This document shows, one piece after another, positions 214 to 54,064 of a stretch of DNA of 54,320 bases. Source of the DNA: a virus. The position numbers were made by a program, and so were the translations under genes. Where the stretch lies: the UHGV virus genome UHGV-1522278. One strand, written 5' to 3'. The notes beneath the pieces are model-generated. The model had not been told where the DNA came from. It was given only the letters and a program-made list of their open reading frames with translations, and made no database searches. Position 1 is the first letter of the stretch. Each line of letters starts with the position of its first letter.

Positions 214-230
214 TATCCATGCGTAAAATG

Positions 231-252: not shown

Positions 253-256
253 AATC

Positions 257-2294: not shown

Positions 2295-2308
2295 TTGCTT
2301 ATCCTCAA

Positions 2309-3110: not shown

Positions 3111-3119
3111 GGCCGCCCC

Positions 3120-3326
3120 TTACACAATCCGCATTGTGTTTCGTAACTCACCGCGCAGCGCCTGCAAAGCGTAACGAATAGGCACAAAAGCCCGGTTAAA
3201 TTTTACATGCTTATACTTGCGCATTAATGGAGGCGTATAAACCATCGTGCCGCAACGATCGCATGTGAATTTAAAGTGAGATTCGTCAATAAACGTTTCA
3301 ACTGAATAAAAAATTACCCGTCTCAT
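3120..3326 (-). CDS. hypothetical protein with a CxxC pair
   Basis: 68-aa ORF containing CDRCG. Confidence 0.45.
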   Translation of the reverse strand: MRRVIFYSVETFIDESHFKFTCDRCGTMVYTPPLMRKYKHVKFNRAFVPIRYALQALRGELRNTMRIV

Positions 3327-3880: not shown

Positions 3881-3956
3881 TTTTAGCCTCGTTTAAAACG
3901 CGATAACAGCCACCAGAAAGCGGTAAACTTTCCGGTAAGCCGTTTGCTCAGATTAA

Positions 3957-5372: not shown

Positions 5373-5390
5373 TATGTTATTTCCTCCGGT

Positions 5391-6509: not shown

Positions 6510-6543
6510 AGTGTCATTTCCTCACGAATAACAAATTGTATAC

Positions 6544-7284
6544 TTAGTTACAAGTTAAAAGCTCAGTGATCCATACTTGTCCTTTAGCAGTGAATACAGC
6601 CTGCTCATATCCATCGTGAGTTACCCTCATTTCACCGTAGCCCTCATCAATAAACCACTGACTGAATACACGGCGGCGACAGCGAAGATCGTAAACACCA
6701 ACCGCCGAAAGTTTTCTGTTTAATTTTACGGCTGACATTCCCAGCGGTTTAGCTACCTCTGAAGCCGTTCGGTGCATATCGTTTTTGACTATCGCGTCAC
6801 ATACAGCCGCTTTCGGAGCCAGCACCTTGTTTTCAAGCGTAAGCCGTTCATTTTCTTTCTTAACTAACAATTTTTGCTCAACCTCATCCGCCCATGCGCG
6901 GGCTGCCGCAACCGGATCAGTGAAATCCGGCAAAGCTAGTTTGTGTTGCGCCTCCTCCAACTCTTTAACGCGTTTAATTACCTTCATGCGTTGCTTAACG
7001 TCATAGCCAGTGATCAAGCACATTGTTAGCTCTTTATTTAGCAAAACCTCATCAATGACGTTGCGACCTTTGTACTGCTTGTACTTAAACAAAAACCCTA
7101 TAAATTCAAAATCCTGCATTTTTGCAGGATAAAAATCATGTTCAGTAAACCCTAAATCTAGCAGCATGTTTTTAATATCACGCACAACCACAGAAGAATG
7201 ATCCTTGTCTGTTGCTTCTGCTATTTCACGCGATGAAATCATTAATACTTCGCTATCGACATCAAAAACCATCAATTCAGACAT
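6544..7284 (-). CDS. antirepressor-like protein (Rha N-terminal + KilA-C/ANT C-terminal domains)
   Basis: start set at the ATG at 7284 with GGAGA RBS; Rha-like motif ISSREIAEATDKDHSSVVRDI. Confidence 0.75.
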   Translation of the reverse strand: MSELMVFDVDSEVLMISSREIAEATDKDHSSVVVRDIKNMLLDLGFTEHDFYPAKMQDFEFIGFLFKYKQYKGRNVIDEVLLNKELTMCLITGYDVKQRMKVIKRVKELEEAQHKLALPDFTDPVAAARAWADEVEQKLLVKKENERLTLENKVLAPKAAVCDAIVKNDMHRTASEVAKPLGMSAVKLNRKLSAVGVYDLRCRRRVFSQWFIDEGYGEMRVTHDGYEQAVFTAKGQVWITELLTCN

Positions 7285-38007: not shown

Positions 38008-40347
38008 ATGGCTACCAGTTTAGGTACAATTTATTACGAAGTCGATGCAAAAACTGGTCAGCTTCTTGTCGCTCAACGACAGGCAGACCAGGCTTTTGAC
38101 AGTATAGAACGCGGCGCAAAACGTGCTGACCGCCAGGTAAACACACTGAAGACATCAATCAAAGCACTGTCCAGGGTTATACATCTGCTACTTGCCGCAG
38201 AGGCTGTACGCCAGTTTATTGACATGGCGGAGCAAGCAAAAATGCTTCGCGTAAAAATCAAAATGCTTACTGGTGATGCAGAGGTCGCAGGACGTGTTTT
38301 CGATGGCCTGAAAGAAATATCAAAAGAAACCGGGCAAAGCCTGAAGGATACTGGCGAACTATGGCAAGGCCTGGCTATCTCACTGAAGAACACGTCAGCT
38401 ACGGATGGTCAATTGCTTAACCTGGTTGGCACGATTCAAAAGATGGGGGCGTTAGGCGGCGCGTCAGCGGAACAGATGTCTAATTCTATGCGCCAGTTCC
38501 GCCAGTCTATAGACGGTGGCGTTCTTCGTGCCGAAGAGTTTAACAGTCTGCTTGAAAACACGCCGACCATCGTACAGACAATGGCCCGCCATATGGGGTT
38601 GTCAATGGGTCAGTTCCGCGCCGAAATGCTGGACGGCAAGATCACGGCTGAAAGGATGGTTAACGCGATCCAGGCAGCTACACAGGAAACAAACGAGAAG
38701 TTTGCACAGTTGCCTCGCACATCCGGCAAGGCTATCAATGAGCTTAAAGTAGAGGTGATGGGGCTTGTTGAGCAACTGGATGATCTTTTCGGTGTATCAG
38801 ATGGCGTTGTGTCAGCTATCGACCTAATAACTGGCGGCGTTGAGGGATTAGGTAAAGGTGCAAAATTCGCCGCAACCTGTTTCAATACACTCAAAACCGC
38901 TGGCAGCGAGTTTATAGACATGTTTGACGACGTTGCTGTTAAAGCTGGTGAGGTGGCGGAAGAGATTATCAGGATGGTAACGCCAATAAAAGCGCTAATG
39001 GATGGCTACAAATGGATGAAGGAGATCATTGATAAACGCAAGGAAGAGCTAAACAGCAATAACGAGAAGAAATTCGGCCCCACCATTGGCAAATTCATGA
39101 CGTTTAAGAATGACATCGAAAAAGCAACTGCCGCTTATGATGAGTTCATGCAGAAACAGGGTGAGGCTAACGATGGCAAGATCACCGGATTCGATCAGCC
39201 AGTTGGTAAGCCGAAAAAACCGAAAAAACAAAAGAAATCTGAAGCTGATCGGCTTGGTGATGAAGGTATAAAAGTGTCCGACCAGTACAACAAGGACGCC
39301 GCCGCTATGCGTAAAGCACTGGAGAACGGCAAGGCCATTGATGCTGCATTCGCCCAGGGAAAAATAACCCTCCTTGAGTACAAGGCCGCGCAGAAAGGGA
39401 TAGGTAAGGAACTGAAGGACGAATTGGCCCAAATCCCGGTGGAAGAATTGCAAGACAAATGGGCGCACATAGTAAGCCCAATGGATCAACTTAAGGGCGA
39501 AATTGACCCCATCAAACAGGTGCAGAATGAGTGGGCCGTCAAAAAACAAATGCTGATAGACCTGGGCGCTACAGAAGCGCAACAGAAACAGGCGCTTTTG
39601 GAATATGAGCAACAGATACGAGATCTGAAGTGGGAACAATGGCAGGCGCAAAGCGACACGAATAGCCTAATCGGTGCTTGTGTTAGTGGCCTAAAAGGTG
39701 GCATGGGTAATGCGCTCACCGGCCTGTTAAACGGTACTCAATCATTAAGCGAGGTTTTCGCCAACCTGGGAAGCAGTATCCTCAATACCGTTGGCAACAA
39801 ACTATCAGAGATTGCCGCTAACTGGATAGCAGATCAATTGATGATGGAAACGCAAAGCAAGGCTACCCAGGCAAGTACAACTGCTGGCGCTGTGGCGGCG
39901 CAAGGTCAGATTGCTGCGGCGGCGGCCCCGGCTGCGGCTGCAACGGCTGCGTCAACTGGTGGTAGCTGGGCTGCGGCTGGTGCTGCGGCACTTTCTGCGA
40001 TCATGTCGCTGGCAACATCAATTTTTGGCGGCGGGCGTTATAATGGTGGTTCTGTAAATGGTGGCAGCCTGTATCGCGTAGGGGAACACGGGATTCCTGA
40101 GTTATTCCAGACGAGCAACGGGCGTCAGTATATGATTCCTGGGGAAAATGGCAGGGTTATTCCTGGCCGCGATCTCTTCAATGGTGGCGGCATCAATATG
40201 CCTGTTAACATCACAGTACAGACCACAAACGGATTTAGCGACGAAGACGGTCGCAGACTTGAACAGACGATGGAACGCGTAGCAATGAAAATGATGGCAA
40301 GGGAATCGCAACGACCGGGAGGAATGTTGCAACCGCGCCGCAAATAA
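38008..40347 (+). CDS. tail tape measure protein
   Basis: 779 aa; long helical protein with Ala/Gly-rich segment; position before the M/L/K/I/J-like genes. Confidence 0.85.
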   Translation: MATSLGTIYYEVDAKTGQLLVAQRQADQAFDSIERGAKRADRQVNTLKTSIKALSRVIHLLLAAEAVRQFIDMAEQAKMLRVKIKMLTGDAEVAGRVFDGLKEISKETGQSLKDTGELWQGLAISLKNTSATDGQLLNLVGTIQKMGALGGASAEQMSNSMRQFRQSIDGGVLRAEEFNSLLENTPTIVQTMARHMGLSMGQFRAEMLDGKITAERMVNAIQAATQETNEKFAQLPRTSGKAINELKVEVMGLVEQLDDLFGVSDGVVSAIDLITGGVEGLGKGAKFAATCFNTLKTAGSEFIDMFDDVAVKAGEVAEEIIRMVTPIKALMDGYKWMKEIIDKRKEELNSNNEKKFGPTIGKFMTFKNDIEKATAAYDEFMQKQGEANDGKITGFDQPVGKPKKPKKQKKSEADRLGDEGIKVSDQYNKDAAAMRKALENGKAIDAAFAQGKITLLEYKAAQKGIGKELKDELAQIPVEELQDKWAHIVSPMDQLKGEIDPIKQVQNEWAVKKQMLIDLGATEAQQKQALLEYEQQIRDLKWEQWQAQSDTNSLIGACVSGLKGGMGNALTGLLNGTQSLSEVFANLGSSILNTVGNKLSEIAANWIADQLMMETQSKATQASTTAGAVAAQGQIAAAAAPAAAATAASTGGSWAAAGAAALSAIMSLATSIFGGGRYNGGSVNGGSLYRVGEHGIPELFQTSNGRQYMIPGENGRVIPGRDLFNGGGINMPVNITVQTTNGFSDEDGRRLEQTMERVAMKMMARESQRPGGMLQPRRK

Positions 40348-40675: not shown

Positions 40676-40930
40676 TCATTTATGTGCCCCTTTTACGCCA
40701 CAGTGGCGGTTGTATTCCAGATGGTCAATAATTAACCACATCTTTAGATCTTCGCTGAATAACCGCCAATCGGGGTTGATGTCAAATTTATAACCGTAGC
40801 CATCGCGTAATTTTTTGGGGTTGGCCTCTTTTTTCAGGAAAGCATTTAATAAAGCCTTGCCTTTTTTGATGATCCGTTCCTGGGCGTTTTTCTGTGCTTT
40901 CAGGTTTTTGCCAATCATTACCAATTTCAT
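40676..40930 (-). CDS. hypothetical protein (84 aa, Lys-rich N-terminus) in cassette B
   Basis: GGGGTGAG RBS; no motif recognised. Confidence 0.55.
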   Translation of the reverse strand: MKLVMIGKNLKAQKNAQERIIKKGKALLNAFLKKEANPKKLRDGYGYKFDINPDWRLFSEDLKMWLIIDHLEYNRHCGVKGAHK

Positions 40931-40950
40931 AACTCACCCCACGCAATCAA

Positions 40951-41106
40951 TCAGTTGACCACTTTCAGGAAGAAATCACGGTATTCATCTTCTTTTGCAT
41001 TCATCATAAATTGACCGTATTTGAATGCATCATCAAAACCCTTCACAATCGCAACTTCCACCTGTTCGAATGCTTTGTTTAGCATTACCACTACATAGCG
41101 TTCCAT
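40951..41106 (-). CDS. small protein (51 aa), first gene of cassette B
   Basis: AAGGAGG RBS; MERYVVVMLNKAFEQVEVAIVKGFDDAFKYGQFMMNAKEDEYRDFFLKVVN. Confidence 0.4.
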   Translation of the reverse strand: MERYVVVMLNKAFEQVEVAIVKGFDDAFKYGQFMMNAKEDEYRDFFLKVVN

Positions 41107-41275
41107 ATTGGCCTCCTTTGTTGGTGCTGCTTTCTCTTCTTGATTTCTATATACATCTTGTCACGTCATGTGTGAAGCCGTTTTGTAAACTGGGTATAAT
41201 TCTTGTGACAAAGTTCTCATTTTTCGCGTAGAAGCGCGTAAAGATGTATGCAATATGTAACTTATAGGGGGAATC

Positions 41276-41629
41276 ATGCCGGAAGTTTTCAGATGGACGC
41301 CGCAAAGAAGCTACAGCGTGACCAGGGAACCAAATGTGTCAGTCGTTAAACTTGGTGATGGTTATGAGCAAAGGCAGGCAAAAGGTATCAACACATTACT
41401 TGATAGCTACACCCTGGTTTTTAAAGGCAGTAGCGCAGGATGCGGTGATAGCGGGAACGTAGCGATCCAGGCGGAAGCATTCTTGAGGGCGCGCGGCGCT
41501 GTCGAGGCTTTCTACTGGACGCCGTCGATGGATAGGGTGCAAAGGCTTTTCGTTTGCCGTAGCTGGAGTATGACTAAGGACGGACCTGTGTACACGCTAA
41601 ACGCAACGTTTGAACAAGTTGTTGGCTAA
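41276..41629 (+). CDS. M: minor tail protein M (lambda gpM-like)
   Basis: 117 aa; alignable to lambda M (FRW...GDGY.QR......FEQVV). Confidence 0.85.
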   Translation: MPEVFRWTPQRSYSVTREPNVSVVKLGDGYEQRQAKGINTLLDSYTLVFKGSSAGCGDSGNVAIQAEAFLRARGAVEAFYWTPSMDRVQRLFVCRSWSMTKDGPVYTLNATFEQVVG

Positions 41630-41826
41630 TGGAGGTTGTTATGTACGGGACTTGTGTAGTTGACAAAACTGACGCTTTTACATTGTTTGACGACTATGAG
41701 ATCAACGACCTTACTGTAAAGGCTGACAATGGCGATACCTGGTATCTTCATGATGTTGGTGACGGGTATGTGGGATGCAGATCCAGGGAAGGCAAGGAGG
41801 TTTTATTTTTGGTTGATGGCGTGTAA
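41629..41826 (+). CDS. hypothetical protein
   Basis: 65-aa ORF coupled to the M gene stop, followed by a terminator. Confidence 0.45.
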   Translation: MEVVMYGTCVVDKTDAFTLFDDYEINDLTVKADNGDTWYLHDVGDGYVGCRSREGKEVLFLVDGV

Positions 41827-41830
41827 TAAC

Positions 41831-41856
41831 AACCCCGCTTCTCGCGGGGTTTTCTT
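41831..41856. terminator. bidirectional rho-independent terminator (near-identical copy at 50286-50313)
   Basis: AACCCCGC-ttctc-GCGGGGTT followed by TTTCTT. Confidence 0.6.
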
Positions 41857-41857
41857 G

Positions 41858-41995
41858 TCAGTAGTTAATGTAAATCAAACTCATTGGGTGAGCGTGCGCC
41901 ATATTATTGGCTATCGCCGCCCAATCCCAATCAGCAGCGTGAACGCCAAATACTATAAGTCCCATTATTATTAGCGCCAAAACTTCTATTTTCAT
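41858..41995 (-). CDS. small secreted/membrane peptide (45 aa), last gene of cassette C
   Basis: AGGTGA RBS; signal-peptide-like MKIEVLALIIMGLIVFGVHA then a Trp/His-rich tail. Confidence 0.35.
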   Translation of the reverse strand: MKIEVLALIIMGLIVFGVHAADWDWAAIANNMAHAHPMSLIYINY

Positions 41996-42005
41996 AATCT
42001 GTCAC

Positions 42006-42254
42006 CTATAAGTTATCACGCAGATAATTAACGCCCTTATCAGTGACGAATGAATGGTTAACCTGGTTTTCATCCGTCATGATGATGAATAACTTTTCCT
42101 GTAGGTATTTCGCTTTTGGGTACAGTGTTAAACAGACTTGATACAGTATCCCGCGCTCAATCAGCAAATCAATAAATTCGTGTTCATGATAACCGATGAG
42201 GCGGGCGGCCTGTTTCAACGTGTACACATAATCGCCGTGATTGCGCCGCCCCAT
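42006..42254 (-). CDS. hypothetical protein with HTH-like segment (82 aa) in cassette C
   Basis: YTLKQAARLIGYHEHEFIDLLIERGIL resembles an HTH. Confidence 0.55.
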   Translation of the reverse strand: MGRRNHGDYVYTLKQAARLIGYHEHEFIDLLIERGILYQVCLTLYPKAKYLQEKLFIIMTDENQVNHSFVTDKGVNYLRDNL

Positions 42255-42263
42255 GTTGCCGCC

Positions 42264-42614
42264 TTATTTATCGAATGCGCCCAGGTTATCTATGCAGAAA
42301 TCTTTTGCCGCTTTTTCGTATTCGCGTTTTGCTTGCGGATCGTCTGCCGGGAAACCTTTTGCGTGTATTTCACCAGGGCAAGACTGATCCATAGAGTCAG
42401 CAAGGTTAACATTGACATTGAAATTGACATCTTTCGGGTTCATCTCTTCCACCTTATCCGGTACTTGTACTGGAACAACATAATAATAACGAGCATTAGA
42501 CCAACAGCGCAGTAATTCACGACCTTCATCACACGCTGATTCATATGTATCAAATAGCCCCATGCGTTCCCATTCGTATTTATCAGTCCACACGTCTAAT
42601 CTGTATTTTTCCAT
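42264..42614 (-). CDS. hypothetical protein (116 aa) in cassette C
   Basis: no motif recognised; tightly packed with neighbours (9- and 15-nt gaps). Confidence 0.55.
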   Translation of the reverse strand: MEKYRLDVWTDKYEWERMGLFDTYESACDEGRELLRCWSNARYYYVVPVQVPDKVEEMNPKDVNFNVNVNLADSMDQSCPGEIHAKGFPADDPQAKREYEKAAKDFCIDNLGAFDK

Positions 42615-42629
42615 TTTTTGTTATAACCC

Positions 42630-42785
42630 TCATTTGACAGGTTCGATCCTGTACCCCAAAACGCGTTCGTCTTCAGCGAGTAAGAGCGCGTCGGTAAGTG
42701 CCTCGCCTTCATCTTTATACAGGGCCACAGTCATTTTCCTGCCATCCGCAAGGAACACCGTCAACCTCCACACCTTGTCATCCAT
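42630..42785 (-). CDS. small protein (51 aa), first gene of cassette C
   Basis: start at the ATG at 42785 with GGAGGTG RBS; MDDKVWRLTVFLADGRKMTVALYKDEGEALTDALLLAEDERVLGYRIEPVK. Confidence 0.45.
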   Translation of the reverse strand: MDDKVWRLTVFLADGRKMTVALYKDEGEALTDALLLAEDERVLGYRIEPVK

Positions 42786-42913
42786 TTCACACCTCCGCGC
42801 CATTTTGTTAACCATGCTTCCTTTTGAGTACAATATACATATTGTAAAAAACGCGATCAACCGTTTTGGCATGATTTAGCGTGATTTAGATCACAAAATG
42901 ACAAGGTGATAAA

Positions 42914-43618
42914 ATGCGCAGCATACCTACAGAAATGATTATTGATTCCGTGGATGCCGGAGTCGGCGCGGTCATTGACTTATTTGAACTGGACCTCACG
43001 CCCCTGGGTGGCGAGGTTATCCGCTTCCATTCCGGCGCGAATGGTTATTACGGCCCTGTTATCTGGAAGGGATTGGCTTACAACAGCTACCCAATCGAGG
43101 CTACCGGCTTCGAAATGAAAAACGAAGGCGTTTACTCACGCCCCCAAATGGTCGTAGCCAACATTGGCGGCCTAATCACTGGGATGAATAACGATTTTAA
43201 CGACCTGCGAGGAATGAAGGTTACGCGCCGCCAGGTGGAAGTAAAATACCTGGATGCTGTTAACTTCCCCAATGGCAACCCGGATGCAGATCCGTCTATC
43301 GAGGCGGTATCTTTTTACGTCGTTGAGGCGATGAGCGAAGAAACAGCCGACCAGGTGCAATATGAACTGTCAACGCCAATTGATGCTGACAAGGCTGTTA
43401 TCCCTGGGCGCACAATCCTCGCTGACGTTTGCCAGTGGCAATATCGCGGCGACGGTTGCAGATACAGTGGCGGCCCTGTAGCCACTGACAAAGACGAGCC
43501 AACCAGTGATCCGAAGCTGGATAAATGCAGCCACCGCCTGAGCGGTTGCCGTTTGCGATTCCCGCGCCCGAATCCGTTACCGATTTCATGTTTCCCCGGA
43601 TCAAGTAAGGTCGGTTGA
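42914..43618 (+). CDS. L: minor tail protein L (lambda gpL-like)
   Basis: 234 aa; gpL-like sequence with C-terminal Cys cluster (CQWQYRGDGC...CSHRLSGC). Confidence 0.85.
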   Translation: MRSIPTEMIIDSVDAGVGAVIDLFELDLTPLGGEVIRFHSGANGYYGPVIWKGLAYNSYPIEATGFEMKNEGVYSRPQMVVANIGGLITGMNNDFNDLRGMKVTRRQVEVKYLDAVNFPNGNPDADPSIEAVSFYVVEAMSEETADQVQYELSTPIDADKAVIPGRTILADVCQWQYRGDGCRYSGGPVATDKDEPTSDPKLDKCSHRLSGCRLRFPRPNPLPISCFPGSSKVG

Positions 43619-43620
43619 TT

Positions 43621-44352
43621 ATGGCACTTGAAGATAAAATGATTCGCTATGCAGCGGCCCACCCTGACGAGGAAGTATGCGGGCTGGTGATAGATAATGA
43701 TTATTTTTACCCGTGCTTAAACGTGTCTGAAACGCCTCACAACAGCTTTAAAATCTCGCCTGACGATTATATCAAAGCTGACGAATTAGGCGTTATAACA
43801 GCCGTTTTTCACTCCCATACTGACGATTCGTTGGTATTGTCAGCACTGGATCGGCAGCAACAGGTTATTTCCGGCCTGCCGTGGTATTTGTGTTCCGGTG
43901 GCAGGGTAAGAAAATTCCGCCCGGTTGCGCACCTGTTGGGCCGTAAATTTGAGCACGGGAAAACGGATTGTTACTCGCTTTTTCGTGACGCCTATCACCT
44001 TTGCGGCGTGGATCTACCGGACTTTGAGCGCCACGATGGGTGGTGGCTGCGTGGGGAAAACCTGTACATAAAAAACCTGCCATTGAACGGGTTTTTCATG
44101 GTTGACGCGCAAAGTATTCAGCCTGGTGATGTGATTATTCGCCAGCCGTTTAAGGGTGCAGATCCATGCCACGCGATGATTTACCTGGGTGACAACACTG
44201 TTTTGCATCATGACAATGCCGGACTGTTAAGCCGCCGCGAGCAAATGCGGCCCGCGTATGTTCGACAGACTAATTCAATATGGAGATCTGACAAATGCTC
44301 AAATTTAGATTTACGGGCAATCTTCGAAGATATTACGGCAAGGTGTGTTTAA
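43621..44352 (+). CDS. K: tail assembly protein K (lambda gpK-like; JAMM/MPN plus NlpC/P60-like)
   Basis: start at the ATG at 43621; JAMM motif FHSHTDDS; Cys/His peptidase-like C-terminal region. Confidence 0.85.
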   Translation: MALEDKMIRYAAAHPDEEVCGLVIDNDYFYPCLNVSETPHNSFKISPDDYIKADELGVITAVFHSHTDDSLVLSALDRQQQVISGLPWYLCSGGRVRKFRPVAHLLGRKFEHGKTDCYSLFRDAYHLCGVDLPDFERHDGWWLRGENLYIKNLPLNGFFMVDAQSIQPGDVIIRQPFKGADPCHAMIYLGDNTVLHHDNAGLLSRREQMRPAYVRQTNSIWRSDKCSNLDLRAIFEDITARCV

Positions 44353-44825
44353 ACGTTGATACGCCAGCGCAAGGACTTAGCATATTGACCGCGCAGGATC
44401 AGGAGTTCAAGAAGGCTTTTTTAAATACACCTTTGCGCTTACGAATTGCCGGAAAAGATTATGACGAAAAGACGGCCCCGGCAGCGGTTAATAGTAAATA
44501 CCCTGACGGAACTACAGTGATTGTTGCGCCAGTGGTGGAAGGTGGTATTGCTGGGATTGGCGTTGTAGGCTGGATTTTAATCGGTGTTTCTGTTGTTAGC
44601 GTTGCTTTCTCGATCTTTATGTCACGCAACATGAAGATAAAAACATCAGCAGAAAGCGCACAAGATAACACCATATCTAACAACACATACACCAGCATTG
44701 AGAACAAAGTAGGACAGGGTAGACCAGTGCCAATCCTGTTGGGTGAAATGAAAATAGGTTCAAATGTCGGGTCGTTAGGCATAGACACAAGCAACAACAG
44801 AGACGCCCTTGACGTTGTAAGTTAA
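44295..44825 (+). CDS. I: tail assembly protein I (lambda gpI-like)
   Basis: 176 aa; overlaps the K gene 3' end as in lambda; internal hydrophobic segment. Confidence 0.75.
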   Translation: MLKFRFTGNLRRYYGKVCLNVDTPAQGLSILTAQDQEFKKAFLNTPLRLRIAGKDYDEKTAPAAVNSKYPDGTTVIVAPVVEGGIAGIGVVGWILIGVSVVSVAFSIFMSRNMKIKTSAESAQDNTISNNTYTSIENKVGQGRPVPILLGEMKIGSNVGSLGIDTSNNRDALDVVS

Positions 44826-44838: not shown

Positions 44839-47800
44839 ATGAGTAGCGGCGGCGGCAAAGCCAAAACACCAACATTATTAAACGATAACCTGTTTCATAA
44901 ACAGTTTTATCGTGTTTTGGACATTCTCAGCGAAGGCCCAATCTACGGCCCTGTAAACCAGAAAGCGCCATTAAACAGCGTAATGCTTAATGACAGCCCA
45001 ATCACTGACGCCAACGGCGGCACATCGGTCCCTGGCGTTAGCGTGGCGTGGCGTAATGGTACGGCTGACCAGTCACCAATCAACGGCTTCAACGCCATTG
45101 AATCAACCGTTATTGTTAACGCAAAAGTGACTCACGATACGCCAATAATCAGGACTGTTTCAGATCCAAACGTTAACCGCGTAAGGCTGAATCTTGGCGT
45201 TGATTCTCTGGTTCAGTCAGATGATAAGGGCAATCAATACAATACATCTGTTGTGTTGATGGTTGATGTTAAGCCATCATCGTCAACAACGTGGTCACTG
45301 GTCAAAGATATTACCATTGGCCCTGGTAAACAAAGCGGCGAGTATATGGAAGCGCACATCATCCAAGCGCCGGATGAAAAACCGTTTGATATTCGCGTTC
45401 GTCGCGTAACGCCAGACAGTAAAAGCGATCTACTTCGCAATGACACCAGGTGGAGCAGTTACAGCGAGATAATAGACGATAACTTGTCTTATCCCCATAC
45501 CGCTGTAGCAGGCGCGGTAATTGACCACGATCAGTATACCGACACGCCGACACGCACCTATCACATGCGCGGCCTGATTGTTGACGTGCCTGATAACTAC
45601 GACCCGGAAACACGCACATACTCAGGTTTATGGCTTGGTGGCTTCAAAAAGGCATACACCAACAACCCTGCATGGCTTTTCCGGTATCTGGTGAAAAATG
45701 AACGCTTCGGGCTTACCCGCCACGCCGGTTACATTGACGTTGATGATGGCGCATTATATGTGCTTTCTCAATACTGCGACCAGTTGGTAAACGACGGTTA
45801 CGGCGGCCTTGAACCACGCATGACGCTTAACGCTTACATCACTGAGCAAATTAGCGCCCGCGACTTGCTGGACAACATTGCAGGCATGTTCCGTGGTATC
45901 GCGTTATGGGACGGGCAGCGCCTTACGGTGATGATTGATGCACCGCAAGATCCAATTGCCACCATCACGAATGCAAACGTCGTTGATGGCGCATTTACTC
46001 GTTCAAGTATCGCCCGCGCGGAATCTTACAACGCTGTGATTGTGTCATGGACTGACCCGGAAAACGGTTGGGAACAATCAAAAGAATACGTAGCAGATGA
46101 TGAACTGATCGCCCGCGATGGTTACAACGAAACCACTTTGGAGGCTTTTGGTTGCACGTCACGCGGGCAGGCGTACCGCGCTGGCAAATGGCTGATAGAA
46201 ACAGCAAAACGCGAACCCTCAAAATTCACGTTTAAAATGGCCCGTGACGCGATTCACTTCACCCCAGGGGATATTATCGAGATACTCGACAATAACCGCG
46301 CTGGCGCTCGTTTAGGTGGTCGCATCGTGGCGAATAACGGGAAAGTGATAACCGTAGACAAGGTTGATTCTGACCTGGTGGCGGCTGGTGACACTATCAG
46401 CTTACTGGACAGCGACGGTAAGTTTAAAAAACATCAGATCACTGGGGTTAACGGAAACAATATTACCCTTGCGGCAGCGCCCGCATGGATTCGTAACGGA
46501 ACCGTATTTGCCGTTTCAACTGAATCCGCAAAACCTGTTCTGTGCCGAATTACCAGCGTAGCGGAAACCGAAAATAACAGCGTGTACACCATTGAGGCTG
46601 CACAGCACGATCCTCACAAACAGGCTGTAGTTGATGAAGGCGCAATCTTCGAGGTAAACAACGACACGCTTAATCACTTCCGCGTGCCGAACATTGAAAA
46701 TCTGAAGGTGTTAAATGTTGGTTCTGAAACTGTTCAATGTCGCGCAACATGGGAAACACAGACGACAACGCATCGCCTGACCTTTGAAATCCGCGTATAT
46801 AACACCGAAGGCCGCATTGTGGCAACTTATGAAACCACGAATTACCGCTATGATTTTTATGGCCTCGACGCTGGCAGCTACACGCTTGGTATTCGCGGGC
46901 GTAATGACACTGGCATGAAGGGTGCGGAAAGTATTGTAGACCTGGTTATTGGTGCGCCAGCGGCCCCGATTGGAGTCAATTGGGTTCCAGGTGTCTTCCA
47001 GGCAACGGTATATCCGATCAGCAAAACAACCCTTACCACTGATACGGCATATGATTTCTACTACTCAGGTGAAAATCAGATCACAGATCCATCAAAAGTA
47101 ACCACGCTGGCGCAATTCACCGGGCGCGGCTACCAATGGACTTTTGGCGGTATGAATACGGGACACACTTATTACGTCTATGTGCGCACGCGTAATGCCT
47201 TTGGTGTGTCAGACTTCGTTGAGGCATCAGGTAAACCGACTGAAAACTTCGACGAAATCAGCGACTACGTGATGAAGGATGTCATGGAGTCAGAACAATT
47301 CAAGGACATGATTGGCGACATTAAAGATCTTGGCGACCGTGCCGACCTTATCGAAAGCGCTACAAATGACCTTAAAAACGCTACTGACAACCTCAAAACT
47401 GCAACTGACACCCTGACAAACGTCACTGACGAATTGAGGACTGATACTGACAACCTGACAAACATCACTGAGGATTTAAGGACTGACACTGACAGCTTAA
47501 TCACAGAAACAGGAGTCATAAAAGCTGACACGGACACACTGAAAAAAGAAACGGAAGATCTCTACAAAAAAGTTAAAGAGAACGCCGATGATATTGGTCA
47601 GCATGAGTCCAGAATCGACTTATTAGAAGTGTCAAGCGAAAAAGTTGACAGCGAACTGGCGCAGGCAAAAGCAAGCCTGCAAAACGCTTCATTGGCGCTT
47701 ATCAACAACTCGCTTGCACAGACAAACACGCGCGTAACCCTTACCGCCCAGTATAAGAAAGGCATGACGGAAACGAAAGCGGAAATTGACCGTATTGACA

Positions 47801-50280
47801 ACGTTATCGCTGAAGAGAAAAAAGCGACAGCGGAATCACTGGAAACCATCACGGCAGAAATGAACACGATGGATTCCAACCTTAAAGGTCAGATTTCCAG
47901 CGTGGAACGTGCAGTGGCTGACGAGGCCAGCGCACGCGCCGAAGCTATTAACGGTGTGAACGCCTCAATAGACAATCTCGACAAGAAAACTGACGCCAGC
48001 GTTAAACGTCTGGACCAGGCAATCGCCGATGAATCGAGCGCGCGCACCCAGGCTGTCAGCGACGTTAACGCAAGCATTTCAGCACTTGACAAGAAAACTG
48101 ACGCCAGCGTTAAACGCCTTGATCAAGCTATTGCAGACGAAACAAGCGCACGCGCCGAAGCTATCAATGGGGTAAATGCCTCAGTATCAGCACTTGATAA
48201 GAAAACCGATTCAAGCATAAGCCGCCTTGATAAAGCTATTGCCGACGAAACGAGCGCGAGAACCGAAGCCATCAATGGTGTGAAGGCATCAATCTCCACA
48301 CTTGACGGCAAGGTAACAAGTAACGTTAATCGCCTTGATAAAGCTATTACAGACGAAACTAAGGCACGCACTGACGCTATCAGCAGCGTTAATGCAAGCA
48401 TCAGCACGCTTGAAAGCAACACTGAATCAGAGGTGAACAGACTCGACCAGGCCATCGCTGACGAGGCCAGCGCACGCGCACAGGCCATCAGTGGCGTGAA
48501 GGCATCGATAGACACCCTTGATAAGAAAACAGACGCCAGCGTTTCCCGTCTTGATAAAGCGATAGCAGACGAAACTCAGGCAAGAAGCGCCGCAATAACA
48601 GATGTTAAGGCTGATTTGACAACGCTCGAAAACAGCACAAACGCCAGCGTCAAACGCCTTGACCAGGCGATTGCTGACGAATCAAGTGCCCGCGCTGAAG
48701 CAATATCAGGCATTAACGCAGAGATCGGCAGCATCGAAAACAACGTTGACAAAAACAGCGATGATATAAATCAGACCAAAGCAAGCCTGCAAAACGCTTC
48801 ATTGGCGCTTATCAACAACTCGCTTGCACAGACAAACACGCGCGTAACCCTTACCGCCCAGTATAAGAAAGGTCGCAAGGAAACAAACGCGCAGATTGAT
48901 CGTATTGACAGTGTTATCGCTGAAGAGAAAAAGGCTACAGCCGAAGCAATTGGCGTGGTAAAAGCATCGATCACCGATCTTGACAAGAAAACAGACGCCA
49001 GCGTTTCCCGCCTTGACAGAGCGATTGCAGACGAAACAAGCGCACGCAGCGAGGCTATCAGCGGCGTGAACGCATCAATTTCCACCATTGATAGTAATGT
49101 GAAAAGCAATATTACCAGGATGGATAAGGCTATCGCCGACGAAACAAAAGCACGCGCAGACGCAATAAGCGGCCTTAATGCATCGCTTACCAGTACGATC
49201 ACCTCGAAAGTATCTGAGGTATCAACGGCACTGGCTACGCATGAGGAATCAAGCGCTGAAAAATTCAGCCAGATCTCAGCGTCATTCGAACTAGTAGACG
49301 CAAGTATCACTGAATGGTCGCAGGCGATGGCTACGGCTGACGAGGCGTTATCAACGAAAATCGATCAGCTAACAGTGACCGTTAACGGGAATAAGACGGC
49401 AATAGAAACGACATCTAAAGCATTGACCGACTTCAAGGGCAATGTTGATGCGTCGTACTCTATCAAGCTGGCGACCGACAACAACGGAATGAAATACGCA
49501 ACAGGTATGTCGCTTGGCCTCACTGGTGACGGCACTAACTTTCAGTCGCAGTGTATTTTCCTTGTTGACCGTTTCGTGTTAATGACCGCAGCAAACGGCA
49601 CATATACAACGCCTTTCTATGTCACCAATGGCGCAATGTATGTAAGAGAAGCGTTTATTAAGGACGGAACTATCAACTCCGCCAAAATAGCTGATCGAAT
49701 ACAGTCAGTTAATTACAGCTGGGAAAACGGTACAGGATGGGCGATAGATAAAGCCGGTGACGCAGTATTTAACCAGGTAACCGTAAGGGGTACGGTATAC
49801 GCTTATGCTGGTGTGTTTAACGGTACTGTTTACGCAACTGGCGGTAAATTTACTGGAGCAGTTGAAGCTACAAGTTTTGTTGGTGACGTGGCAAGTATGT
49901 CAGTGATAAACGAGGATGTATTTCCGTCAATGAGGGGAAATGGCAGCAGGCGCGTTTCGAAAACTTATCTTGATTCAAGTTCATCAAGTTTATCAAAAAC
50001 AGTTTACGTTATGATTCCGTATGATTTGTCATACCATACATATAGTGAATCTTCTCGCATCAATGTAACTATAAATATAAGCGGACACACAAAAACAATT
50101 AATATAGAAAGGCCAGCATCAGGCCAAGCAATGTCATCTGTCGCGGTGCACTGTGTATCTGGCCTCACATACCCAACAATTACAGTCGAGGTGACGGAAA
50201 ACTTTACCAATACATCTAATGCAGCAATAAGAAAACCAGGTTTAATACTTATAACAAGAAGTTCAGGAACATGGATATAA
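44839..50280 (+). CDS. J: host-specificity / central tail fibre protein J-like, extended by a long coiled-coil repeat domain
   Basis: 1813 aa; N-terminal two-thirds J-like; aa about 1020-1450 are about 11 tandem 37-aa repeats (LDKKTDASVKRLDQAIADE.SAR.EAI.GVNASI); distinct C-terminal domain. Confidence 0.85.
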   Translation: MSSGGGKAKTPTLLNDNLFHKQFYRVLDILSEGPIYGPVNQKAPLNSVMLNDSPITDANGGTSVPGVSVAWRNGTADQSPINGFNAIESTVIVNAKVTHDTPIIRTVSDPNVNRVRLNLGVDSLVQSDDKGNQYNTSVVLMVDVKPSSSTTWSLVKDITIGPGKQSGEYMEAHIIQAPDEKPFDIRVRRVTPDSKSDLLRNDTRWSSYSEIIDDNLSYPHTAVAGAVIDHDQYTDTPTRTYHMRGLIVDVPDNYDPETRTYSGLWLGGFKKAYTNNPAWLFRYLVKNERFGLTRHAGYIDVDDGALYVLSQYCDQLVNDGYGGLEPRMTLNAYITEQISARDLLDNIAGMFRGIALWDGQRLTVMIDAPQDPIATITNANVVDGAFTRSSIARAESYNAVIVSWTDPENGWEQSKEYVADDELIARDGYNETTLEAFGCTSRGQAYRAGKWLIETAKREPSKFTFKMARDAIHFTPGDIIEILDNNRAGARLGGRIVANNGKVITVDKVDSDLVAAGDTISLLDSDGKFKKHQITGVNGNNITLAAAPAWIRNGTVFAVSTESAKPVLCRITSVAETENNSVYTIEAAQHDPHKQAVVDEGAIFEVNNDTLNHFRVPNIENLKVLNVGSETVQCRATWETQTTTHRLTFEIRVYNTEGRIVATYETTNYRYDFYGLDAGSYTLGIRGRNDTGMKGAESIVDLVIGAPAAPIGVNWVPGVFQATVYPISKTTLTTDTAYDFYYSGENQITDPSKVTTLAQFTGRGYQWTFGGMNTGHTYYVYVRTRNAFGVSDFVEASGKPTENFDEISDYVMKDVMESEQFKDMIGDIKDLGDRADLIESATNDLKNATDNLKTATDTLTNVTDELRTDTDNLTNITEDLRTDTDSLITETGVIKADTDTLKKETEDLYKKVKENADDIGQHESRIDLLEVSSEKVDSELAQAKASLQNASLALINNSLAQTNTRVTLTAQYKKGMTETKAEIDRIDNVIAEEKKATAESLETITAEMNTMDSNLKGQISSVERAVADEASARAEAINGVNASIDNLDKKTDASVKRLDQAIADESSARTQAVSDVNASISALDKKTDASVKRLDQAIADETSARAEAINGVNASVSALDKKTDSSISRLDKAIADETSARTEAINGVKASISTLDGKVTSNVNRLDKAITDETKARTDAISSVNASISTLESNTESEVNRLDQAIADEASARAQAISGVKASIDTLDKKTDASVSRLDKAIADETQARSAAITDVKADLTTLENSTNASVKRLDQAIADESSARAEAISGINAEIGSIENNVDKNSDDINQTKASLQNASLALINNSLAQTNTRVTLTAQYKKGRKETNAQIDRIDSVIAEEKKATAEAIGVVKASITDLDKKTDASVSRLDRAIADETSARSEAISGVNASISTIDSNVKSNITRMDKAIADETKARADAISGLNASLTSTITSKVSEVSTALATHEESSAEKFSQISASFELVDASITEWSQAMATADEALSTKIDQLTVTVNGNKTAIETTSKALTDFKGNVDASYSIKLATDNNGMKYATGMSLGLTGDGTNFQSQCIFLVDRFVLMTAANGTYTTPFYVTNGAMYVREAFIKDGTINSAKIADRIQSVNYSWENGTGWAIDKAGDAVFNQVTVRGTVYAYAGVFNGTVYATGGKFTGAVEATSFVGDVASMSVINEDVFPSMRGNGSRRVSKTYLDSSSSSLSKTVYVMIPYDLSYHTYSESSRINVTINISGHTKTINIERPASGQAMSSVAVHCVSGLTYPTITVEVTENFTNTSNAAIRKPGLILITRSSGTWI
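47668..47762 (+). repeat. exact 95-bp direct repeat, copy 1 (inside J)
   Basis: identical to 48778-48872; similarity continues with mismatches for about 100 bp more. Confidence 0.8.
47896..49200 (+). repeat. degenerate tandem coding repeats (about 111-bp unit, about 11 copies) inside J
   Basis: periodic repetition of GACAAGAAAACTGACGCCAGCGTTAAACG...ATTGC(A/C)GACGAA-type units; in-frame coding, not CRISPR. Confidence 0.6.
48778..48872 (+). repeat. exact 95-bp direct repeat, copy 2 (inside J)
   Basis: identical to 47668-47762. Confidence 0.8.
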
Positions 50281-50285
50281 AAAAC

Positions 50286-50313
50286 AACCCCGCTTCGCGC
50301 GGGGTTTTCTTTT
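50286..50313. terminator. bidirectional rho-independent terminator between J and the lipoprotein gene
   Basis: AACCCCGC-ttcgc-GCGGGGTT followed by TTTCTTTT. Confidence 0.6.
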
Positions 50314-50560
50314 AGTAGTTAGCTACACAGTTAGAAGGGCTACCGATGCGGCGCATGTTGTGATCGAGTTCGTGACACCATTGACCAGTATATGGCAGTT
50401 TTTCAGTGTCATAGACTAGATGCCCGCCACCATCATAAACAACATCTTGCGGAATTACTCCACTATTCGGCAGGTTATGCAATGCAGCCTCTTTGTCAAC
50501 AGAGCAACCAGTAAGAGCAACAGCCGCAGCGAACAAAACCACTTTGAACACGTTTTTCAT
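50312..50560 (-). CDS. lipoprotein, candidate Cor-like superinfection-exclusion protein
   Basis: 82 aa; signal peptide plus lipobox (MKNVFKVVLFAAAVALTGC); convergent with and immediately downstream of J. Confidence 0.7.
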   Translation of the reverse strand: MKNVFKVVLFAAAVALTGCSVDKEAALHNLPNSGVIPQDVVYDGGGHLVYDTEKLPYTGQWCHELDHNMRRIGSPSNCVANY

Positions 50561-50737: not shown

Positions 50738-53700
50738 ATGATTTACACAACTGGAACAATTGCCATCAGCGGCAATACTGTTACAGGCACGGGCACAAAC
50801 TTTTCCGCGCCGCTTTCTCTTATTCGTGTAGGTTGCACGCTCATTGCTGTTGGCAACCCTGTACAGATCTTTACCATCACGGAAATCAAAAGTGGTACTG
50901 AACTGTCAGTGACGCCAGCGGCTAACCCCGCCATCCCTGCCGGGACAAAATTTAGCATCCTGCTATCTGACTCGATCTCAGTTGATGGGCTTGCTCAGGA
51001 CGTGGCTGAAACCCTGCGTTACTACCAGAGCAAAGAAACAGAAATCGCCTCCGCTGTAGAGTGGTGGGAAGATTTCGGCGGCGAAGGTCAGTTGGATCAG
51101 CTTCTTACCAACATTCGCGCAGAAACAGCACAATCAACCGCCAACGCTCAAAAAACAGAAACTGACAAAAACGCAGCAGAAGCGTCAAAAACAGCGGCTG
51201 CAAAATCTGCCACAGCAGCGAAAACATCAGAAACTAACGCTAAGGCAAGCGAGACGGCAGCGAAAACAAGCGAAACCAACGCCAAAACATCAGAGAACAG
51301 GGCGCAAGAATATCTGAATCAGATAATAAGGTCTAACAACGCATTGGTACAATGCAATTGGCCTGTTACAACTGAAGCCTTTGCCCGTTATGTGAAGATC
51401 GCTAAACTAACCGATCCGGGTGCAGTAAGCTGCCATTTAACACTAATGATCGCCAATGGCGGTAACTACGGTACAAGTTACGGGAATATTGACTTTGTAG
51501 AGATCTCCGCTCGCGGTCTTAGCGATGTGGAAAGCATAACCAGTGAAAATATAACTAAATTTTTAAGTGTTCGCCGCCTCGGATCGCCTAACCTTGCTAA
51601 TGACAACCAAATGCGTTACGGCCTGGTTAAAGGTGACGGCTATATCGAGGTCTGGTGCTACCAGCGAGCTTTTATTAAAGAAACAAAGGTTGCGATACTG
51701 GCACAGACTGGCAGAACTGAATTATACATTCCTGAAGGGTATGTCGTTCAGGAAGCCGAACCCGCTGGATATGTTGAAAGCCCAGCAGCAAGGATTTACG
51801 ATCAGGTAAACAAACCAAGCAAGGCAGACTTAGGCCTTTCTAATGCTATGCTTATAGGCGCTTTTGGTCTTGGCGGCAGCGGTCCGTCATCAAACGGCAT
51901 GATGAGCAATACAGAGCTATTAAAAGCACTGCGTGCAAAAGGTAGTCATTTCTGGCGTGCTGATAAGCCTGACGGAAGCACAGCGACACATTACGCCCAC
52001 GGTTCTGGTATATTCTCTCGGTGCGGTGATACATGGTCGGCGATCAACATAGAATACGAAAATGCCAGAGTTAAGATTTTCGCTGGCAATGATAACAAAC
52101 TTGAAACTGCAACTTATGCCGTAAATGAGCTATACGGAACCAAAAATAAGCCGTCGAAATCTGACGTTGGACTTGGCAACGTAACTAATGATGCGCAGGT
52201 GAAAAAATCCGGCGATATTATGTCTGGCGACCTGGCGGTCTATAAAGATACTCCGTCACTATTCCTTAGGGCAAAAGATGGAGCAGGTGCTGCCGCTGTG
52301 CGGTTTTTCACTGATCAAAACCTGGAGCGCGGCATAATCTATGCTATTCAAAACACTGATACGCTTGGAGAAGTTCGCATTAGGGCTAAAAACGCAAAAG
52401 GTGAAACAAACGGTGATCTTGTTGTTCGCCACAACGGGGTGGTTGAGGTTCAGAATCTCACAGCGGCTAAAAAAGTAAAAAGCGTAAACGCAGAGCTTGC
52501 AAACACATCAACTAACACGCTTGAGAACACGTTAAAAATCAGCGGTCAACAGCATACTCCATTACTTTTAACGCGTACCGGTTATACTGAAAACCTATCC
52601 ATTGGCTTTAAGGTTGACAACCTTGATCAAAAATATCTCGGAATCAATGGCAGTGGAGATCTAGCTTTTGGTAAAAATGCTGATCATAAACAAAACAGCA
52701 GAGTGATTACGCAAGCAATACTGGATAGCGGGGTGACGGTAGGCGGCAAAACAACATTTTCTGACCTTGCCACATTTAACGCAGGTATGGCTGGAGCAAT
52801 TGAGCCTGAAAGCATTTCTGAAGTGGCTGTTGATCTTAATAATCTGACCATAAAAGGCACAGATAAAGGTTCAGTTAAATACTATCACTGCAGAACTGCC
52901 GGAGGCGGTGCAAATATTACCAATAAGCCTGCTGGCATAGGTGGTAACTTTTTGCTTCGTGTAGAGTCAATTCGTAAGATCACGGATTCAGATTATACAA
53001 ACTTGCAAACCCTTGTTGGCACAGACACAAAACAAATATACGTTCGCTATTGTGAAAATGGCAATTGGTCTGCATGGAGTCAGATTGTTGTTTCAGGAAG
53101 AAATCAGGATGTAACCGTCAGGTCGTTAACCTCGACGACTCCATCAAAATTAGGTGGCGGGCGTATTGATGTGCTTGGGAGTACGTCAGATTATAACAGC
53201 ATGAATTGTACCGTGCGCGGTGTTGATAGCAGCGGAACTAATTCTGCGTGGTCAGTAGGCACATCAGTAGACACTGGCAAAATGTTGTTCCTGAAAAACC
53301 ACAGAAGCAGCGCTCAAGTGCTGTTAAATGGCGATGACGGCGCGGTTCAACTACTAAGCGGTACTGTCAACGGTGCTACAGCACAGGCGCTAACCATCAA
53401 CAAAGATGAGGTTAACTCAACTGCTGATTTAGTAATTAGAAAACAAACAGGGACTGGCAATCGTTTTGTTTTACAGAACGCAGGTAATGCAGAACTACCG
53501 TTTTCTGTCAGTGTGTGGGGTTCCAGTACTCGACAAAACGTTTTTGAGGTTGCCACGTCTGCTGCGTATCTGTTTTATGCGCAAAAAACGTCAGCAGGCC
53601 AGTTGTTTGATGTAAATGGCGCTATTAATTGCACAACGCTGAATCAGTCATCAGACCGCGACCTTAAAGACGATATTCTCGTTATCAGCGACGCGACGAA

Positions 53701-54064
53701 AGCAATCCGTAAAATGAACGGATACACCTACACGCTCAGGGAAAACGGGATGCCTTATGCTGGCGTTATTGCACAGGAAGTAATGGAGGCGCTACCGGAA
53801 GCCGTAGGATCGTTTACTCGTTACGGTGAAGAATTGCAGGGTCCGACCATTGATGGCAACGAGCTACGCGAAGAAACGCGTTACCTCAATGTTGATTATG
53901 CGGCGGTGACTGGTTTACTTGTCCAGGTGGCACGCGAAACGGATAACCGCGTCACCAAACTGGAAGAGGAAAACGCCAGCCTGAAAGCTAACATTGCCGC
54001 AATGGATGAGCGTATCGCAAAACTTGAAGCGCTTGTCAGTCAGTTGACCGGAAGCGAAGAATAA
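50738..54064 (+). CDS. side tail fibre protein with C-terminal intramolecular chaperone (S74-type) domain
   Basis: 1108 aa; Thr/Ala-rich SETNAK-type repeats near the N-terminus; C-terminal about 120 aa resemble the self-cleaving chaperone domain and end in a coiled coil. Confidence 0.85.
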   Translation: MIYTTGTIAISGNTVTGTGTNFSAPLSLIRVGCTLIAVGNPVQIFTITEIKSGTELSVTPAANPAIPAGTKFSILLSDSISVDGLAQDVAETLRYYQSKETEIASAVEWWEDFGGEGQLDQLLTNIRAETAQSTANAQKTETDKNAAEASKTAAAKSATAAKTSETNAKASETAAKTSETNAKTSENRAQEYLNQIIRSNNALVQCNWPVTTEAFARYVKIAKLTDPGAVSCHLTLMIANGGNYGTSYGNIDFVEISARGLSDVESITSENITKFLSVRRLGSPNLANDNQMRYGLVKGDGYIEVWCYQRAFIKETKVAILAQTGRTELYIPEGYVVQEAEPAGYVESPAARIYDQVNKPSKADLGLSNAMLIGAFGLGGSGPSSNGMMSNTELLKALRAKGSHFWRADKPDGSTATHYAHGSGIFSRCGDTWSAINIEYENARVKIFAGNDNKLETATYAVNELYGTKNKPSKSDVGLGNVTNDAQVKKSGDIMSGDLAVYKDTPSLFLRAKDGAGAAAVRFFTDQNLERGIIYAIQNTDTLGEVRIRAKNAKGETNGDLVVRHNGVVEVQNLTAAKKVKSVNAELANTSTNTLENTLKISGQQHTPLLLTRTGYTENLSIGFKVDNLDQKYLGINGSGDLAFGKNADHKQNSRVITQAILDSGVTVGGKTTFSDLATFNAGMAGAIEPESISEVAVDLNNLTIKGTDKGSVKYYHCRTAGGGANITNKPAGIGGNFLLRVESIRKITDSDYTNLQTLVGTDTKQIYVRYCENGNWSAWSQIVVSGRNQDVTVRSLTSTTPSKLGGGRIDVLGSTSDYNSMNCTVRGVDSSGTNSAWSVGTSVDTGKMLFLKNHRSSAQVLLNGDDGAVQLLSGTVNGATAQALTINKDEVNSTADLVIRKQTGTGNRFVLQNAGNAELPFSVSVWGSSTRQNVFEVATSAAYLFYAQKTSAGQLFDVNGAINCTTLNQSSDRDLKDDILVISDATKAIRKMNGYTYTLRENGMPYAGVIAQEVMEALPEAVGSFTRYGEELQGPTIDGNELREETRYLNVDYAAVTGLLVQVARETDNRVTKLEEENASLKANIAAMDERIAKLEALVSQLTGSEE

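Follow-up and report, generated by a model that had tools for sequence, protein, structure and literature searches.

How has the J-like gene of the virus genome UHGV-1522278 become so much longer than that of phage lambda, and how do its internal repeats change? In this stretch of 54,320 nucleotides (nt), hereafter the window, an uninterrupted open reading frame (ORF) of 1813 codons on the plus strand (44839-50280) encodes a J-like central tail fibre (tip attachment) protein of 1813 amino acids (aa), identified by its Pfam domains, its match to lambda gpJ and the gene order. The protein is probably the trimeric central fibre (J/TipJ) of a temperate coliphage of the mEpimmI group, which retains the domain order of lambda J and whose helical shaft was enlarged by modular repeats and is changed by recombination. 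A first-pass annotation had described the protein as J-like and 600-700 aa longer than lambda J, and both descriptions held. The protein matched lambda gpJ (PDB 8iyk) with E = 4e-182, contained FNIII-A_GpJ (aa 88-214), Phage-tail_3 (aa 335-492), Ig_J (aa 609-707) and Ig_J_second (aa 709-811) domains above the Pfam gathering thresholds together with a more distal Phage_Tail_Tip match, and exceeded the 1132-aa lambda J by 681 aa. Against the NCBIfam model NF049904 (lambda_TipJ), it scored 718 bits versus a cut-off of 1950, with the match confined to model positions 1-888, and we therefore regard the protein as J-like, though not as a lambda J equivalog.

The alignment with lambda J fell into two blocks, in which residues 1-858 of lambda J were colinear with residues 1-851 of the query, and residues 843-1001 with residues 1520-1688. 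In lambda, residues 809-861 form the shaft, a trimeric three-helix bundle that leads from FNIII-2 to the beta-prism 'central straight fibre' (PMC11101478, from which the domain names used here are taken). Because of both alignment blocks, the approximately 670 extra residues sit exactly at the alpha-helical shaft of lambda J. The conserved body on the proximal side (aa 1-803, 44839-47247; all features of the gene are on the plus strand) comprises the hub and the FNIII/Ig domains and is the counterpart of lambda gpJ 1-~808, based on Pfam and the colinear alignment. On the distal side, the beta-prism central straight fibre domain, Phage_Tail_Tip / DUF1983 (PF09327, E = 2e-39), occupies aa 1521-1658 (49399-49812) and is followed by a C-terminal presumed receptor-binding domain (aa 1659-1813, 49813-50277), which matched phrog_9413 'tail protein and host specificity' and was further delimited by comparison of cassettes among relatives. 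The hub with FNIII/Ig domains, helical shaft, beta-prism and C-terminal domain of a lambda-type central fibre are thus all present, and the shaft, predicted to be helical over ~700 aa (aa ~804-1504) versus ~53 aa in lambda, is ~13 times longer.

The extra length is built from several kinds of repeats, arranged in the order of about ten heptads, a module of ~75 aa denoted A, eight units denoted R, a second module A' with a degenerate unit, and two further R units. The first-pass annotation had counted about 11 degenerate repeats of 37 aa; the count was fair, but the period was off by one, since a repeat search, Tandem Repeats Finder (TRF) and an amino acid autocorrelation peak at lag 36 all gave a tandem period of 108 nt, or 36 aa. 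A scan with a hidden Markov model (HMM) found ten full 36-aa R units (8 + 2), one degenerate unit fused to A' and a weaker one inside A. The heptad array, which the first-pass annotation did not contain, covers aa 839-910 (47353-47568) with about ten 7-aa (21-nt) repeats of the (A/D)TDxLxx type, and is supported by TRF periods of 21 and 42 at 47369-47494, by hydrophobic periodicity and by a predicted helix at aa 835-915. Module A (aa 911-1018, 47569-47892) has the core KASLQNASLALINNSLAQTNTRVTLTAQYKKG..IDRIDNVIAEEKKATAE and occurs once or twice in each of the 18 J genes that were surveyed. R block 1 consists of eight units (aa 1019-1306, 47893-48756), detected by the repeat search, by TRF at period 108 and by the HMM scan. 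Module A' (aa 1307-1352), an old duplicate of A found in 13 of the 18 J genes, and the degenerate R unit (aa 1353-1388) together span 48757-49002, and R block 2, with two units found by the HMM scan, spans 49003-49218 (aa 1389-1460). A distal helical linker (aa 1461-1520, 49219-49398) connects the last R unit to the beta-prism.

The R units follow the consensus VsRLDqAIADEtsARteAIsGVnASIstLdskTdsS. Over 89 distinct units, A7, A9, E11, A14, R15, A18 and A24 were nearly invariant, and positions 1, 4, 8, 19, 22, 26 and 29 were V/I/L/M/F in 92-100%. Within the window gene the units have nevertheless diverged to pairwise nucleotide identities of 51-73%, with TRF matches of 75-77%. Searches of the repeat region against Pfam, PHROGs and NCBIfam returned no curated repeat family; the region matched only phrog_37064 'tail fiber protein' and, weakly, coiled-coil families that resemble it (SMC, SF-assemblin, ZorA). 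The minus-strand ORFs within the J gene were regarded as by-products of the repeat composition.

The first-pass annotation had called this region a coiled-coil repeat domain and had proposed structure prediction, which we implemented with AlphaFold2 (AF2), and both the predicted helix and the hydrophobic periodicity agreed with that description. The hydrophobic periodicity was 3.5 residues in the heptads and 3.6 in the R array, with none in aa 100-800, and the core of the R unit is spaced 3/4/4, which corresponds to a periodicity of 3.6 residues (heptad plus hendecad). This core fits a nearly straight three-helix rod. A monomer model from a 22-sequence alignment showed a helix at aa ~804-1504 with four short breaks and a mean predicted local distance difference test (pLDDT) score of 62, and a second monomer model from a 58-sequence alignment showed aa 1354-1483, which includes R block 2, as a helix at pLDDT 94-97. 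Long antiparallel strands follow the shaft in the model, and Foldseek related them to the lambda structures 8xcj/8xci (E = 3e-8). We also considered the breaks as true hinges at which the shaft would fold back; however, one break coincided with an ordinary unit boundary, and the unit counts of blocks 1 and 2 vary independently among relatives (8+2, 7+4, 4+4, 11+2, 4+0), which favors an extended rod over an antiparallel fold-back.

To compare the shaft among relatives, the phage itself had to be placed. The window begins with an integrase and is collinear from nt 94 (94-25000) with mEp010, mEp044 and mEp013 at ~90% identity, and therefore represents a complete genome of the mEpimmI group (mEp021 relatives). 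This group consists of Nus-dependent non-lambdoid coliphages (PMC11893012, Front Microbiol 2025). Relatives of the J gene were found in seven phage records and in 35 of 5426 complete E. coli genomes. A protein homologue search gave only proteins of up to ~1226 aa, many of them contig-end fragments, and was not usable for a copy-number survey; the survey set was instead taken from annotated phage and E. coli records and consisted of the window and 17 further J genes, which were scanned with the R-unit and A-module HMMs. The first ~830 aa of the window J are 90-99% identical to those of the 17 relatives. Many public homologues are labeled 'partial', with one end at a contig boundary within the repeat array. 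Short-read assemblies thus routinely break in the array, and J lengths in databases are unreliable for the mEpimmI-type family.

The first-pass annotation had suggested that copy number may vary between lineages and had proposed an alignment of J homologues as the check; when copy numbers were compared, they were far from invariant. The window shares the layout A-8R-A'-r-2R (ten R units, where r is the degenerate unit) with WCHEC025970, N921, 2-331 and str127. One unit fewer in block 1 is found in MIN12 (A-7R-A'-r-2R, nine R units) and three more in NRZ96606 and str190 (A-11R-A'-r-2R, 13). In mEp554, mEp044 and mEp021 the layout is A-7R-A'-r-4R (11 R units), in UMNK88 A-7R-A'-r-3R (ten), in mEp010 A-4R-A'-r-4R (eight) and in LP26 A-4R-A'-5R (nine). 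The smaller arrays are those of mEp515 (A-4R, four units), MagusPhagus (A-r-4R, four), N1286 (A-r-5R, five) and mEp013 (A-3R-A'-r, three). The 18 J genes therefore carry 3-13 R units and one or two A modules in proteins of 1393-1935 aa, always in register, and their heptad numbers differ by -5, -4, -2 or +2. The terminal R units are positionally conserved across the family, and it is the internal units that are gained or lost.

Nearly isogenic pairs revealed the size of single steps. The J genes of mEp021 and mEp515 had no mismatch over 4182 aligned nt, and their single difference was a clean indel of 1002 nt (334 aa) between similar units. The N921 and MIN12 genes were 99.4% identical apart from one 108-nt indel, which is exactly one unit, and N921 and NRZ96606 were distinguished by indels of 324 nt and 42 nt. 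Both mEp021 and mEp515 form plaques and depend on OmpA (PMC11893012), so that a shaft difference of 334 aa is tolerated. A tandem in-frame array with copy numbers that differ among close relatives might also be expected of a fast contingency locus, in which units would frequently be gained and lost in a phage population and each lysate would contain fibre-length variants. However, the near-identical units expected of a hypermutable tandem-repeat locus were not found in the window J, where the units have the low identities given above and the longest exact repeats besides a 95-bp tract are 29 and 26 nt, and the 8+2 layout was kept among relatives that are 13% divergent. We consider rapid variation of this kind highly improbable. 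Since the units are so divergent, the number of units changes through occasional homologous recombination over evolutionary time rather than by rapid slippage.

The 95-bp tract itself had been described as an exact duplication whose similarity continues for about 100 bp more. Positions 47668-47762, inside module A, and 48778-48872, inside A', indeed match letter for letter over 95 bp, and the exact match stops at both ends; the longer similarity amounted to 177 nt at 90% identity in total (47662-47838 versus 48772-48948). The entire 54-kb window contains three exact direct repeats of at least 25 nt (95, 29 and 26 nt), and since all three fall in the J gene, chance can be excluded as their origin. 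What did not stand is the notion of a fresh duplication. The A' of almost every relative is distinct from its A, for example with SIALINNSIAQ versus SLALINNSLAQ. The closest relative, the WCHEC025970 prophage, has a module A identical to that of the window and still shows 12 differences of the A' type at gene nt 3963-3999. Likewise, I1322 and I1329 are kept in three E. coli proteins that belong to the same 90% cluster and are 97-98% identical to the window protein, which has L at both positions, and among the compared proteins the converted tract is private to the window sequence. Because relatives keep the A'-type tract and A' is present in 13 of the 18 genes, the 95-bp repeat is best described as a recent A-to-A' gene conversion in an old duplication, in which the copy in module A would have been the donor and the core of the second copy (48801-48837) would have changed from A'-type to A-type. 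In one of these three (P0092, MEF8647022.1 / MEF8970560.1), aa 1370-1408 after A' are replaced en bloc by A/R1-type sequence (SLETITAEMNTMDSNLKGQISSVE...); this patch is an independent and longer conversion between the modules, and such conversion is recurrent.

The window was assembled by MEGAHIT (k127) from human gut metagenome reads, and we considered whether the 95-bp identity, and possibly the mosaic distal half described below, could be a short-read assembly artefact, in which the assembler took the wrong paralogous branch or joined two strains. A and A' have exact flanks on either side of a 37-nt variable tract, the number of 'partial' homologues ending in the array indicates that it troubles assemblers, and the converted tract occurs in the window sequence only. 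On the other hand, the k-mer of 127 is longer than the 95-bp repeat, the identical 1813-aa protein is found on four contigs of unequal size (ENA, JGI/IMG), and a different A-to-A' conversion patch exists in the protein of an independent E. coli isolate; these three observations make an artefact unlikely. In addition, the A...A' architecture is present in complete, independently assembled genomes, and the crossover zone matches neither parent at hand perfectly, unlike a simple two-strain chimera.

The distal part of the gene has a different affiliation from the proximal part. Over gene nt 1-~4430, the window was 99-100% identical to WCHEC025970, with the differences collected in patches at gene nt 1479-1689, 3813-3831, 3963-3999 and 4173-4218, and from approximately gene nt 4440 it was 96-100% identical to the N921 type. 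The sliding identity and the mismatch lists place a crossover just past the last R unit, in a zone that starts in the distal helical linker (~49278-49440), importing an N921-type tip and C-terminal cassette. The tip and C-terminal cassette are 95% identical to those of N921, MIN12 and NRZ96606. The C-terminal domain taken by itself is 92-95% identical to those of N921, MIN12, NRZ96606 and 2-331, 56-68% to those of MagusPhagus and N1286, and 22-41% to those of the other eleven relatives, including LamB- and OmpA-dependent mEp phages (receptors assigned in PMC11893012); with the six characterised mEp phages the identity is 22-36%. For the patch at gene nt 4173-4218, no intragenic donor was found, and its best match was the orthologous unit of mEp044/mEp021. 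The patch at gene nt 1479-1689 (window 46317-46527) contains ~45 mismatches relative to WCHEC025970 and lies in the hub region (aa ~493-563). It resembles a short recombined segment within the conserved body, so exchange would not be limited to the repeats.

Combining these results, we propose a trimeric shaft in the form of an almost straight three-helix rod, where trimerization is deduced from the trimeric lambda J. At ~0.15 nm per residue, each R unit would add ~5 nm, and the insert would move the receptor-binding domain up to ~100 nm further from the tail tip. The comparison of relatives shows that whole units are gained or lost by in-register homologous recombination and that the A modules exchange sequence through gene conversion, of which the 95-bp repeat is one recent A-to-A' tract; the distal end of the array is a crossover point at which receptor-binding cassettes are swapped. 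The rod would then set the distance to which the receptor-binding tip projects, and copy number may in turn affect fibre length or receptor reach. It would also have to relay the receptor-binding trigger from the prism to the collar of FNIII domains that holds the tail shut, as the short shaft of lambda does. Several points weigh against this proposal. The first AF2 model had a low mean confidence and four helix breaks, and both AF2 runs were monomer models, blind to the oligomer; rod length and trimeric packing are inferred. Text searches of PMC11893012, which includes transmission electron microscopy of six relatives, gave no remark on a conspicuous ~100-nm terminal fibre. WCHEC025970, N921, 2-331 and str127, which are 86-97% identical, retain exactly 8+2, and the divergence of the units marks them as old, which indicates that change is slow. 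Finally, the window is a short-read metagenome assembly, which bears on the 95-bp tract and the mosaic junction.

A further question is whether the coil remains a coil. A January 2026 preprint (PMC12874032) reports that a 163-aa trimeric coil in the central fibre of the F7 pyocin refolds into a beta-prism on target binding, that the strands carry an SxSxxMxxLxS motif in alternating orientation, and that both conformations are predicted in 21 of 24 siphophage fibres. Applied to the window J, this would mean that a metastable trimeric coil converts into a beta-prism on receptor binding, each 36-aa unit giving one beta-hairpin, so that the fibre shortens, pulls the tail to the outer membrane and releases the FNIII collar, and that the number of units sets the stroke and the stored energy. 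This extends the rod proposal and does not exclude it; we regard it as possible, with the balance tilted against it. Residues 1366-1642 aligned with residues 915-1186 of the F2-pyocin fibre (25vf_A) at E = 1e-30, an alignment in which the end of the R array and the linker take the place of the pyocin coil. However, the coil alone as query missed the pyocin fibre and retrieved only T1 gp33 (E = 8e-5), so that most of the score comes from the beta-prism domain. Each R unit contains one reverse (35'-9) and one forward (14-24) motif, phase-locked, and aa 800-1520 contain 21 forward and 19 reverse motifs compared with ~5 + 5 in shuffled sequences and 1 + 2 in aa 1-800. The motif is loose, however, and the R units are homologous, so that the 40 matches are not independent and are only suggestive; moreover, the strands can be placed almost equally well in another register (positions 6-16 and 25-35).

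With respect to the residues, the M and L of the motif occupy core positions of the predicted coil (4 and 1; 19 and 22), and its S positions coincide with the otherwise puzzling invariant surface alanines 7, 9, 14 and 24. A part of the lambda shaft (841-861) becomes beta strands on LamB binding (PMC11101478), but the preprint itself places lambda and T5 among the fibres without an extensive switch (PMC12874032). In the deeper-alignment AF2 run, albeit a monomer model, the R units remained helical with high confidence, the 22-sequence run also gave a helix, and the refolding of 3 x 700 residues would be unprecedented. Thus, that the 700-aa array is a modular, expandable fold-switch engine, in which unit number (3-13) tunes the reach and stroke of a 'non-contractile' tail, is a tentative idea that we hold to be rather doubtful. 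If it were true, the zero-mismatch pair mEp021/mEp515, with 11 versus 4 units, would be a natural experiment on stroke length and infection.

Returning to the elongated rod, we compared it with known systems. The closest are the mEpimmI coliphages (mEp021, mEp010, mEp013, mEp044, mEp515 and mEp554) and E. coli prophages, which have a collinear genome and the same architecture of heptads, A, R, tip and receptor-binding domain. For the mEpimmI J proteins, differences in size have been described, as have 'repeats of different length (positions 950-1,475)', followed by a stretch that is conserved and a C-terminus that varies and recognises LamB or OmpA (PMC11893012). Text searches of that paper returned no unit anatomy, copy-number table, isogenic indel pairs or conversion tracts. 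Unlike the known mEpimmI J proteins, the window J combines a WCHEC025970-type proximal 4.4 kb with an N921-type distal 0.95 kb. Lambda gpJ (PDB 8IYK, 8XCG, 8XCI, 8XCJ) shares the domain order, both alignable ends and the M-L-K-I-J neighbourhood, but differs in its short shaft (809-861 versus ~700 aa in the window) and in an unrelated receptor-binding domain. Phage T1 gp33 (PDB 9L9P) has an IA(D/T)ExxAR coiled-coil unit just upstream of its DUF1983 prism, in 3-4 units of ~33 aa; its C-terminal part (821-1172) was unresolved and was predicted to be a protrusion of ~37 nm (PMC11945409). The J-like 'tail fiber protein' of Klebsiella phage KMI8 (Drexlerviridae; 2206 aa, 115-6735 of the examined locus) carries at least 20 units of the 36-aa IAxExxAR type. 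Its shaft, if fully helical, would exceed the tail length of many siphophages. T1 and the Klebsiella Drexlerviridae belong to other phage families, and their repeats are 34-40% identical without an A/A' pair. As T1 gp33 and the 2206-aa KMI8 J carry the R-type unit, neither the size nor the repeat of the window J is unique, and KMI8 J is the longer of the two proteins. The central fibres of F-type pyocins (F7, PMC12874032; F2, PDB 25VF) are homologous in the hub (E = 1e-126) as well as in the distal coil and prism at the E value given above. In contrast with the window J, the pyocin coil of 163 aa is not obviously repetitive and belongs to a particle without DNA, and switching is demonstrated there, compared with hypothesised for the window J.

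From these comparisons, the window gene is a new mosaic allele, otherwise ordinary, of a family in which size variation and repeats were already published. New in the present comparison are the dissection of the array into single units, the table of copy numbers, the indels between near-isogenic genes, the conversion tracts and the connection to the fold-switch motif. The family forms a natural series in which a siphophage central fibre is lengthened or shortened, presumably in 5-nm steps, with viability kept, and in which the repeats double as junctions for swaps of receptor-binding cassettes. Such junctions and units may be of use for engineering host range and fibre reach. The array also matters for assembly and annotation, since many database homologues are truncated in it. 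Should the 2026 fold-switch model apply, the family would provide graded natural variants for how much coiled coil the trigger needs.

Around the gene, J follows homologues of TMP, M, L, K and I as in lambda, and the relatives are annotated alike. The upstream tail cluster includes TMP_3 (38008-40347), the M-like Phage_min_tail (41276-41629), Phage_tail_L (42914-43618) and a K-like NlpC/P60 gene with JAB (43615-44352), all assigned by Pfam, and an I-like ORF (44295-44825). Inside this tail operon, between the TMP/M-like and L genes, lies a block of mostly minus-strand small genes (40676-42879), which includes an ORF with a ParE-like toxin domain (40676-40930; PF24732, E = 6e-12) and an ORF with a KilAC/ANT antirepressor domain (42006-42254). 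The block is conserved in mEp phages and E. coli prophages and resembles a moron or accessory island, although its location is unusual. In mEp021 and mEp515, which depend on OmpA, a 188-aa ORF lies between I and J and overlaps the start of J (3437-4003 of each examined locus); it is annotated as a putative HNH endonuclease in mEp021 and as a hypothetical protein in mEp515, and is absent from the window and from LamB-dependent phages.

Directly downstream of J on the minus strand, 50312-50560 encodes an 82-aa lipoprotein (phrog_12984, E = 2e-26), which is the positional counterpart of the Lpp superinfection-exclusion lipoproteins tested in PMC11893012, and in UMNK88 the corresponding position is taken by an annotated Cor lipoprotein. 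The lipoprotein type probably co-varies with the receptor-binding cassette of J. Further downstream, a plus-strand gene (50738-54064) encodes an 1108-aa side tail fibre with a C-terminal Peptidase_S74 intramolecular chaperone domain (aa 972-1023). When the length of the J rod was compared with that of the side fibre, using the annotated lengths of the relatives, no pattern was seen. Orthologues of the side tail fibre range from 449 to ~1160 aa and are in places annotated as 'pyocin knob domain-containing'.

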